A stretch of 64,000 nt of DNA from assembly GCA_963840455.1 (NCBI GenBank), contig CAWIYV010000011.1:800001-864000 (forward strand), in the 5' to 3' direction. Each line of letters begins with the position of its first letter. Position 1 is the stretch's first letter. Of the stretch, positions 38,279-38,685 are shown piece after piece. The notes beneath the pieces were generated by a model that saw only the letters and a program-made list of their open reading frames with translations, was not told the origin of the DNA and did not search any database. Source of the stretch: Nitrospirota bacterium (GTDB lineage: Bacteria > Nitrospirota > UBA9217). A program made the translations under genes and the position numbers.

Positions 38279-38685
38279 AAGTTCACAAGCTGGCTGGGAC
38301 GGTGAACCTGCCTTAGGGTTGGTAAAACCACGAGACCTGATTGGTAATCCGTCCCACCCTTTTATAGCGTTATCAGCATCTTTACTGCCCATACCGCGAG
38401 CCATCTTGGGGCTGGTTAACAACCATAAGACTTGTACGAACTCCTGGACACGGCATGGAACCGAAGATTTTCTGGTCCGCCAAAAGGCGGAAAGGGTCAT
38501 GGATAAAAGAGCTCCACCAATGACCTTAATCCCGATGGGTGACTGGTGCAGTGAAGACTGACGCCGAAACCGAATGAAACTGCGGCAATGGTGAAGATGA
38601 AGATAACGACAAGGCTAGGCGAGAAACGTTTCGTTTCTCGCCACAAGATAGCTGTTTTCGCTTGACGGTGCCCTTTAAATGGGTG
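38279..38685 (+). ncRNA. putative bridge/seek RNA in the IS right end
   Basis: Stem TGGGACGG/CCGTCCCA encloses TAGGGTTG and GAGACCTGA, which match the insertion target; ATGGGTG matches the donor end. Confidence 0.8.

Follow-up and report, generated by a model that had tools for sequence, protein, structure and literature searches.

A second target-type loop in the guide RNA of an IS1111-group insertion sequence of Nitrospirota covaries with the insertion site

Positions 38279-38685 of the DNA analysed here (64 kb of a Nitrospirota bacterium, contig 11, 800001-864000, from a parent assembly of 4.03 Mb in 14 contigs; hereafter the window) constitute the right-hand 3' non-coding region of an insertion sequence (IS) of the IS1111 group, which is its guide-RNA gene. 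The RNA combines a target-binding loop (loop 1), a second loop of the same layout (loop 2) and, further downstream, a guide for the right end of the element (module 3). The guides of loop 2 covary with the DNA flanking the insertion and do not match the ends of the element. We propose an RNA with three guide modules in which loop 2 occupies the second recombinase dimer and is programmed with target-derived, not donor, sequence, a reading to which we give roughly an even chance. The element is present in two copies, the shorter of which holds the stretch named above (copy A), the other being full length (copy B). Relatives are cited by locus number (L008 and so on), and other coordinates are those of the window.

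Loop 2 is built like a target loop and follows the target

Loop 2 repeats the layout of loop 1, namely an outer stem, a helix of 3 base pairs (bp; CCA/UGG), a 5' guide, a hairpin UGG..ACCA and a 3' guide ending in UG. In copy A, the 5' guide is TTGGGGC (38406-12; GGGGCTG at 38408-14), the hairpin TGGTT-AAC-AACCA (38413-25) and the 3' guide AAGACTTG (38427-34). RNAalifold, run on 87 relatives, predicted the outer stem with compensatory change in 7 of its 10 pairs. A hand-written structure that extends this stem by the third pair of the inner helix and by the central hairpin was paired in 94.1% of cells, against 17-39% in slid controls; eight pairs had changed on both sides, and all five measures lay above those of shuffles (0 or 1 of 500). 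These figures bear out the sequence-only reading, which had recognised the layout of loop 1 a second time at this place, and loop 2 is read here as a structural paralogue of loop 1, on its modelled layout and not on its sequence. According to a prediction from 27 sequences, a long-range stem would close a multiloop in which loop 2 and module 3 lie together with two small conserved hairpins.

Both loops were readable in 118 elements, which represent at least eight target classes, and the guides of loop 2 track target switches in relatives down to 45-51% protein identity (Table 1). They pair with the flanks of their own element at 5.02 and 5.03 of 7 positions, against 4.33 and 4.00 with the flanks of other elements, and they agree with the loop 1 guides of their own element at 4.51 and 3.76 of 6 positions, more than is found between 76 guide classes (3.39 and 2.37); none of 5000 permutations, which ignore kinship among the elements, reached any of these values. 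The check that had been suggested beforehand, covariation of loops and insertion flanks across homologous IS, thus came out positive for loop 2. By position, the guides pair in 90, 92, 82, 86 and 69% of cases at left -1 to -5, with wobble more frequent than in loop 1, and in 100, 87 and 88% at right +2 to +4, falling to background at right +5.

Table 1. Targets of the element and of relatives with the 5' / 3' guides of both loops (core TG between hyphens; percentages are protein identities)
Target	Source	Loop 1 guides	Loop 2 guides
AGACC-TG-ACCCTA		UAGGGU / GAGACCUG	UGGGGC / AAGACUUG
AGAAA-TG-TCCTAT		AUAGGAC / GAGAAAUG	ACAGGAC / AAGAAGUG
GAGAT-TG-CTTCG		ACGAAGC / GGAGAUUG	ACGAAGC / UGAGAUUG
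TATTC-TG-CATAGA		UCUAUGC / AUAUUCUG	UCUAUGC / AAAAUCUG
CAGAT-TG-CCACGT		ACGUGGC	AUGUGGC
CGAA-TG-TCCCTT	Paraburkholderia plasmid, 51%	AAGGGAC / CCGAAUG	AAAGGAC / GGGAAUG
ACTC-TG-ACCCCAAT	Methylococcales metagenome-assembled genome (MAG), 50%	UUGGGGUG / GACUCUG	CUCGGGUC / GAUUCUG

With the ends of the element, loop 2 pairs at 3.14 (start of the left end) and 2.51 (end of the right end) of 7 positions, and shuffled guides reach 3.30 and 2.77. Since this is the level of shuffled guides, a donor-binding loop in the sense of IS621 is rejected. Two further candidates failed as well: the two bases behind the core of loop 2 (UA, AA, AU, UG, UC, AG, UU or CA) show no consistent match as a handshake to the left end or the right flank, and a loop 2 that reads the other arm of a palindromic host repeat would fit the flank of copy B only and fails at that of copy A.

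Loop 1 as the target-binding loop

In copy A, the stem of loop 1 (TGGGACGG, 38295-38302, paired with CCGTCCCA, 38349-38356) and an inner 3-bp helix (ACC 38306-08/GGT 38343-45) enclose a 5' guide TAGGGT (38314-19), the reverse complement of the right flank ACCCTA, a hairpin TGGT-AAA-ACCA (38320-30) and a 3' guide GAGACCTG (38332-39), followed by AT (38340-41). The 5' guide complements the top-strand sequence of the right flank and continues, within TAGGGTTG (38314-21), into U.G and G.T opposite the core TG; the 3' guide has the sense of left flank and core, GAGACCTGA (38332-40) being the left flank GAGACC, the core TG and an A.

That loop 1 is the target loop, as had been concluded from the sequence alone, is confirmed across the relatives. 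Its 5' guide pairs with its own flank at 6.01 of 7 positions (4.67 with the flanks of other elements; n = 100) and its 3' guide at 5.47 of 7 (3.96; n = 79), each with 0 of 5000 permutations reaching the value. Position by position, 97, 99, 91, 96, 89 and 76% pair at right +1 to +6 and 97, 97, 92, 94 and 83% at left -1 to -5. Loop 1 would thereby select the insertion site through about five bases left of the core TG, the core itself and six bases to its right. Behind the core, the 3' guide always carries AU, the dinucleotide with which the left end begins in most lineages (ATAATC...); the clade of copy A has TATAACC at this end instead.

Two side observations concern loop 1. In L100 (1625-1688) and L019 (3536-3599), the core in its 3' guide is mutated (GG or UA for UG) and loop 2 has kept UG; these copies are possibly inactive. 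In L014 (1013-1730), one element interrupts the non-coding region of a relative, at ...CTTTACTG^CCCATGCC (^, junction, here and below), just before loop 2. This insertion fits its own loop 1 guides, CGUUACUG / ..CACGGGU, and is a case of an IS targeting the guide-RNA gene of relatives.

Module 3, a donor guide with handshake bases

Module 3 was readable in 119 elements. In copy A, it contains ATGGGTG (38535-41), identical to the last seven bases of the element (38679-85), that is, the right end plus core. The match to the donor end had been noted before and holds throughout: in 71 elements the mean identity is 6.99 of 7, with one mismatched base in total, and it persists in elements ending in ATGGATG rather than ATGGGTG. 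The following AC (38542-43) equals the first two bases of the right flank of copy A, and across relatives the two bases in this place equal right flank +1,+2 in 93 of 99 distinct insertions (0 of 5000 permutations), in eight classes (AC, TC, CT, CA, CC, GC, TA and TT). Judged by sequence, module 3 is a donor guide with a handshake dinucleotide, and its pairing partner would be the bottom strand at the right IS end and core.

Four of the six elements without this dinucleotide match (L081, L092, L109 and L118) carry the final 14-15 bases of their right end as a tandem repeat; the flank behind the array matches in L081 and L092 and half matches in L109, and the array of L118 exceeds the displayed stretch. 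The repeated unit, CC(C/T)TTTAAATGGGTG, is present at the right ends of these four and of L014 in 2 to 5 or more copies and begins directly behind a GGTG of the subterminal repeat that resembles the end GGGTG, an arrangement suggestive of recombination at an internal pseudo-end.

CCUUAAUCCYG, which forms the 5' part of module 3, hardly varies even among elements of 45-50% protein identity and does not track the left end. Resemblances to the left end elsewhere in the RNA, namely UGGUUA of the loop 2 hairpin (to TAACCA/TAATCA), AUAACCAUA (to ATAATCATA) and UAAUC, which occurs after loop 1 and before module 3, were set aside as chance; none covaries in distant relatives.

What loop 2 may do

Because loops 1 and 2 are built alike and the two loops of IS621 are housed in one recombinase dimer each (as described in the part consulted of Hiraizumi et al. 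2026, PMC13626964), loop 2 would take the place in the second dimer that the donor-binding loop holds in IS621. Its programme would be a shorter and wobble-richer version of the target, comprising left -1 to -5, the core and right +2 to +4, with which it would read target-derived DNA again, most likely the target halves that flank a resident copy at excision or, alternatively, one target half-site at synapsis. In the course of excision, the 3' guide of one loop would hold the left flank and the 5' guide of the other loop the right flank, and module 3 would meanwhile hold the right end and, via its two extra bases, the junction. We infer, rather than observe, that loop 2 pairs with DNA, which DNA this is and at which step it happens.

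By analogy, the long form of the seekRNA, as these guide RNAs are also called, would consist of loops 1 and 2, since about 165 nucleotides (nt) lie between the start of loop 1 and the end of loop 2 here and the long form of the ISEc11 type measures 145-170 nt. For ISEc11, the consulted parts of Siddiquee et al. (2024, PMC11187229) describe a transposase that binds RNAs of 82 and 154 nt from the 3' region, movement of 42% with the 82-nt RNA, which holds the target loop only, versus 15% with the long form, and formation of circles that requires donor flanks matching the RNA; there, the long seekRNA's role and how the ends are recognised are called open. A loop 2 that is nearly a copy of loop 1 would explain both that loop 1 alone can stand in and that the donor flanks matter. 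A further-reaching version, in which both dimers are loaded with target-programmed loops and the ends are read by the right-end guide together with protein contacts with the subterminal repeats, seems rather unlikely to us.

Several findings weigh against a target-reading loop 2 in the second dimer. The fit to the flanks is poorer for loop 2 than for loop 1 (mean 10.12 vs 11.51 of 14), and right +1 pairs in only 66% of cases, which leaves room for weak or partial pairing. No account of the relatedness of the elements is taken in the permutation tests; the argument from covariation is carried by the number of separate target classes that loop 2 follows. A covariance model of loop 1 (R1) finds loop 2 by a local, non-significant match only (11-12 bits, E 1.3-4.3). 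No guide for the left IS end emerged from a complementarity scan of five elements, and column mutual information in 84 elements was weak or confounded by phylogeny. Contigs of relatives from RNA libraries cover the region and show no RNA ends. According to the consulted parts of PMC11187229, the short RNA of ISEc11 is sufficient for movement, and its long RNA still worked when reprogrammed at the target matches; if that RNA has an unchanged loop 2, matching by loop 2 is not essential. Neither a second target-type loop nor a covarying right-end handshake guide was found in the literature searched, a 2026 review and a 2026 survey of bridge RNA variants included; the figures or supplements of two 2024 papers may show such a loop.

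The sequence-only reading had suggested another role, namely that loop 2 is an independent second target-binding loop and that such a multi-guide RNA permits insertion into variants of the host repeat. This idea draws on the complete target-loop layout and target-like guides of loop 2, on the presence in the genome of the site it would predict, AAGAC(C/T)TG^GCCC(C/T) (e.g. at 11444 and 11613), and on its 3' guide, which is richer in U where loop 1 has C (C>T 31 vs T>C 12) and would thereby relax specificity. The insertion sites, however, follow loop 1: of the 68 distinct insertions for which both flanks were available, 51 are fitted better by loop 1, 9 equally well by either loop and 8 better by loop 2. 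In six of the latter (L103, L100, L099, L098, L069 and L027) its advantage is a single pair, and only in L026 (11 vs 8 of 14, a margin of 3) and L097 (13 vs 11, a margin of 2) is it larger. Positions left of the core that a single loop can pair fall to loop 1 in 54 cases and to loop 2 in 30. With a loop 2 guide ending in ..GGGC, all 22 of 22 distinct insertions have A as their first flank base and none has the G that loop 2 would prefer, and in two other clades the base that pairs with loop 2 alone occurs in 0 of 7 and 0 of 6 insertions. The effective match of loop 2 is, moreover, short (right +2 to +4), and the G variant lies within reach of loop 1, which pairs by rU.dG wobble with 13 of 13 positions of the 'variant' repeat AAGACCTG^GCCCTAA at 11444 and with 12 of 13 of TAGACCTG^GCCCTAA at 11613. 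Since loop 1 thus reaches the variants and the sites follow it, a widening of targeting is neither needed nor seen; we consider a multi-guide RNA improbable, although loop 2 may occasionally serve as a target loop, given its better fit in L026, L097 and L103.

Alternatively, loop 2 could be a scaffold that only binds protein, pairs with no DNA and owes its likeness to loop 1 to an old duplication with occasional copying between the loops. Copying would give the identical 9-mers found in both 3' guides of L009/L010, L116, L120, L133 and L027; rearrangements at the loops are on record in the hybrid loop of L113 (L113:2006-2070) and in an RNA-library contig that skips 38360-38444; and in ISEc11 an RNA without loop 2 is enough. 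In close relatives (L008, L009, L011 and L030), however, the two loops vary independently around one consensus, and loop 2 follows at least eight target classes, often through wobble-compatible change (AAGCC vs GAGGUU in L094; L134) instead of identical tracts, which is the pattern of selection for pairing and not of copying; a mere scaffold therefore appears unlikely to us. Loop 2 might also regulate, either as a deliberately imperfect mimic-reader of the target that would keep the complex at occupied or near-cognate sites and thereby slow excision or confer a kind of target immunity, or as a signal for processing of the short RNA. Such a role would suit its systematic imperfection at right +1 and +5, the lower transposition with the long RNA of ISEc11 and the view that the short form is processed from the long one, but no sequence feature points specifically to inhibition or processing, and a processing signal need not track the target, so that we hold regulation to be quite doubtful. 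As an aside, L113, with its fused loop 1/loop 2 hybrid, also has a truncated transposase gene.

The element, its copies and the host repeat

The element belongs to the IS110 family, IS1111 group, and its RNA is a bridge RNA or seekRNA. The group assignment follows from subterminal inverted repeats, a long 3' non-coding region and a TG-flanked site in a host repeat. The protein of copy B, 340 amino acids (aa), matches PF01548 (69.4 bits), PF02371 (44.5 bits) and the NCBIfam model NF033542, 'IS110 family RNA-guided transposase' (173.7 bits, cut-off 140). The non-coding region measures 407 bases from stop codon to element end, compared with 97 upstream of the gene. Insertion is specific for site and orientation and leaves no target duplication beyond the shared core, which is TG in all 79 relatives whose left flank was read. 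These domain matches, repeats and non-coding region corroborate the IS1111-type bridge RNA of the sequence-only reading, whose coordinates and motifs all hold on re-reading. Both loops keep the guide order of the group (38314-19 before 38332-39 in loop 1, 38406-12 before 38427-34 in loop 2), whereas the published architecture of one target loop and one donor loop gives way here to two target-type loops and a separate right-end guide. A scan against Rfam returned no family for the guide RNA, only microRNA models, below threshold, on the unrelated hairpin at 37238-37292.

Table 2. Features of the element and its surroundings
Feature	Position	Strand	Details
Copy A, IS1111-group insertion sequence	37624..38685	+	limits from identity with copy B minus the shared target, and from empty genomic sites
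Core TG of copy A	38684-85; 37622-23		right core counted inside, left core outside the element
Left target half and core	37614..37623	+	GAGACC (37616-21) and TG (37622-23); matches loop 1 3' guide
Left subterminal inverted repeat	37635..37644	+	AAAGGGCACC; partner GGTGCCCTTT at 38667-76; kept in relatives
Truncated transposase open reading frame (ORF), 185 aa	37721..38278	+	DEDD domain only; PF01548 residues 6-109
Loop 1, target-binding loop	38294..38356	+	outer stem 38294-302/38349-56; model R1, 81.7 bits
Long-range stem, 5' strand (predicted)	38369..38387	+	partner about 38586-38607; RNAalifold, 27 relatives
Loop 2, second target-type loop	38388..38457	+	outer stem 38388-38402/38444-57; covariation
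Module 3, putative donor (right-end) guide	38514..38548	+	closing helix CCACCA/TGGTG; conserved CCTTAATCCCG; ATGGGTG 38535-41; AC 38542-43
Conserved hairpin before right end	38618..38642	+	GGCGAGAAACG...CGTTTCTCGCC
TTGACG, -35-like hexamer	38662..38667	+	18 bases from right end; CTTGAC kept in relatives
Right target half	38686..38691	+	ACCCTA; complement of loop 1 5' guide
Copy B, full length	59785..61311	-	transposase 60192-61214, 340 aa
Relic C of a related element	13563..13940	+	no transposase; single copy in genome

Position 38685, the endpoint of the stretch that had first drawn attention, is the exact final base of copy A (Table 2), whose subterminal repeats have terminal extensions of 11 and 9 bases. 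In both copies the left junction reads ...caacaaaaGAGACCTG^TATAACC... (in a longer reading ...caacaaaaGAGACCTG^TATAACCATATAAAGGGCACC...) and the right junction ...AAATGGGTG^ACCCTA (also read as ...GGTGCCCTTTAAATGGGTG^ACCCTA...), with the core TG at each; the left flank that the copies have in common is host sequence, not part of the IS. The target reconstructed beforehand, GAGACC-TG-ACCCTA, is borne out by these junctions and by uninterrupted sites elsewhere in the genome (gcaacaaaaGAGACCTGACCCCA, ...GAGACCTGATCCTA and ...GAGAGCTGACCCTA).

A blastn search of the genome with 37560-38760 returned a minus-strand match at 59779-61329 (99.6-99.8% identical and about 490 bases longer internally), a 77.6% relative at 13620-13944 and two end fragments on other contigs. 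Copies A and B are identical over the non-coding region (407 of 407) and the left end (97 of 97). Copy A is a defective member: the longer copy B encodes the full transposase, and the gene of copy A lacks about 440 and 47 bases relative to it through two internal deletions that leave the frame open, its product being a DEDD-only part fused to the C-terminal tail. With its ends and RNA region untouched, copy A could be mobilised in trans by copy B. The related relic C retains, in this order, the left end, the 3' half of the loop 1 stem, loop 2 (13675-13706, with GAGGCCTGA), module 3 and the right end; it has no 5' half of loop 1 and is flanked by AAAGACC-TG-ACCCCT.

The genome holds 29 sites within two mismatches of the 14-mer target, and the motif AGRCCTGRCCC occurs nine times in the window against 0.12 expected, with AGACCTGGCCC at 11439 and 11608 and AGGCCTGACCC at 19478, 32884 and 59720(-). 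The host repeat around this motif, found genome-wide and in the window e.g. at 9105, 11439, 11608, 19478, 32884, 43310, 43998, 44389 and 59720, often has gcaacaaaa or caaaccgc in front of it and nnGGTTCC behind it, and is the landing site of this IS clade; targets like AAGAYYTG^ACCCY recur in many relatives from other phyla.

A circle of the element would join TTGACG, 18 bases and the TATAAC of the left end (37624-29 in copy A) into a promoter-like junction, which we take as a hint only; a junction promoter in the circular intermediate is described for the family in the consulted parts of PMC11187229. Contigs from four RNA libraries of sediment samples contain relatives 88-95% alike; they show neither ends, strand nor level, and DNA may be present. 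One of them, of 1285 bases, spans the transposase gene, loops 1 and 2 and module 3, and the contig that skips 38360-38444 comes from run X9. A search of sequencing runs for the region found small shares only, at most 0.19 of words.

Upstream of copy A, two overlapping small ORFs (36043-36785, minus strand) encode what we take to be a Doc/Fic-type toxin (HPFLDGNKRTA) and an AbrB/SpoVT-like antitoxin, and the perfect 20-bp hairpin at 37238-37292, behind a small ORF with a cysteine-rich C-terminus (36982-37215), looks like an intrinsic terminator.

Relation to known guide RNAs

As far as the consulted parts of the sources show, the RNA resembles the seekRNAs of ISEc11, ISPa11, ISKpn4 and ISPst6, which likewise lie in the 3' non-coding region behind a DEDD transposase of about 340 aa, with subterminal inverted repeats. 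It shares with IS1111 seekRNAs a stem-closed loop, an overlap at the insertion point, natural reprogramming among relatives and the order of the matches, that of the top strand standing 5' of that of the bottom strand (PMC11187229). In the long form of the ISEc11 type the target loop is the first half, as it would be here. In contrast to what those parts of PMC11187229 describe, where target matches sit only in the short RNA, the second half here has target-type guides that covary with the flanks, and the donor-end guide lies further downstream, outside a long form of 165 nt.

With the bridge RNA of IS621 it has in common, again for the parts consulted, that a single RNA carries separate target and donor modules and reads both strands around a shared core dinucleotide. 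In IS621, handshake guides beside the core in one loop match the other DNA (Durrant et al. 2024, PMC11208160; Hiraizumi et al. 2024, PMC11208158), and the two bases behind the 7-mer of module 3 and the AT of loop 1 are placed like them, at the 3' end of the 3' guide. With the element reversed, we infer by analogy that module 3 would correspond to the 3' donor guide of IS621 with its handshake and the AU of loop 1 to the handshake of the target loop. Unlike IS621, the RNA lies at the right end, the guide order is reversed, each loop has a central hairpin, the loop in second position has target-type guides, and the donor guide covers the right end only and sits in a multiloop; for many IS1111 orthologues, donor-binding nucleotides have been placed in a multi-loop (Durrant et al., PMC11208160). 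Half-match and excision complexes of IS621 (Xie et al. 2026, preprint; PMC13626964), in the parts consulted, bring in the idea that a match of half a loop suffices and that excision substrates are read across two loops. IS621 excision recognises the donor arms, of which two target-type loops would provide a target-arm version here. Membership of the IS1111 group is known ground; the second target-type loop and the covarying right-end handshake guide amount to one guide module beyond the published two-loop picture.

Data set and tests

Scanning a single genome for each species yielded 62 loci with 39-94% protein identity, mostly from Nitrospirota, Syntrophales and other sediment MAGs, and a scan of metagenome contigs with a 10-protein alignment contributed the best 80 of 554 relatives. 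Two plasmid relatives were added (L063 and L064, with 51% and 45% protein identity), which carry all three modules; in L065, a 28% relative, the 3' region is short and unrelated. A hidden Markov model of the non-coding region, built from 27 aligned relatives, made 144 matches in 130 of 148 sources. Model R1 was built from 83 of 105 distinct loop 1 sequences after near-duplicates and oddly long ones had been removed by hand, L050 was dropped from alignment A1, and the structure tests of loop 2 used 87 of 99 distinct stretches, those with long hairpin inserts being omitted. Identical combinations of guides and flank were counted once. At the five loci with right-end tandem duplication (L014, L081, L092, L109 and L118), the true flank does not start at the base behind the first copy of the end; these loci were excluded from the loop-fit, per-position and loop-2-specific-base counts and kept in the flank-pairing test.

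Conclusions

Programmable DNA-insertion tools are being developed from recombinases of the IS110/IS1111 type, of which the IS1111 branch is less well understood. For its host genome the element is ordinary, being present as two copies and one relic of a site-specific IS in a host repeat. Together with about 118 relatives it gives, for one clade, a concrete and testable answer on the second half of the long RNA, namely a target-type loop that evolves with the target. Should loop 2 prove dispensable, a conserved and covarying RNA module would still need an explanation. If it reads the donor flanks, it reveals both the guidance of excision in IS1111 elements and the changes that retargeting requires. 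If both dimers are indeed target-programmed, synapsis would follow a logic unlike the target-loop/donor-loop scheme of IS621; this would explain the sufficiency of the short RNA, the requirement for matching donor flanks and the purpose of the long seekRNA, and reprogramming would need three coordinated edits, in loop 1, in loop 2 and in the handshake dinucleotide.

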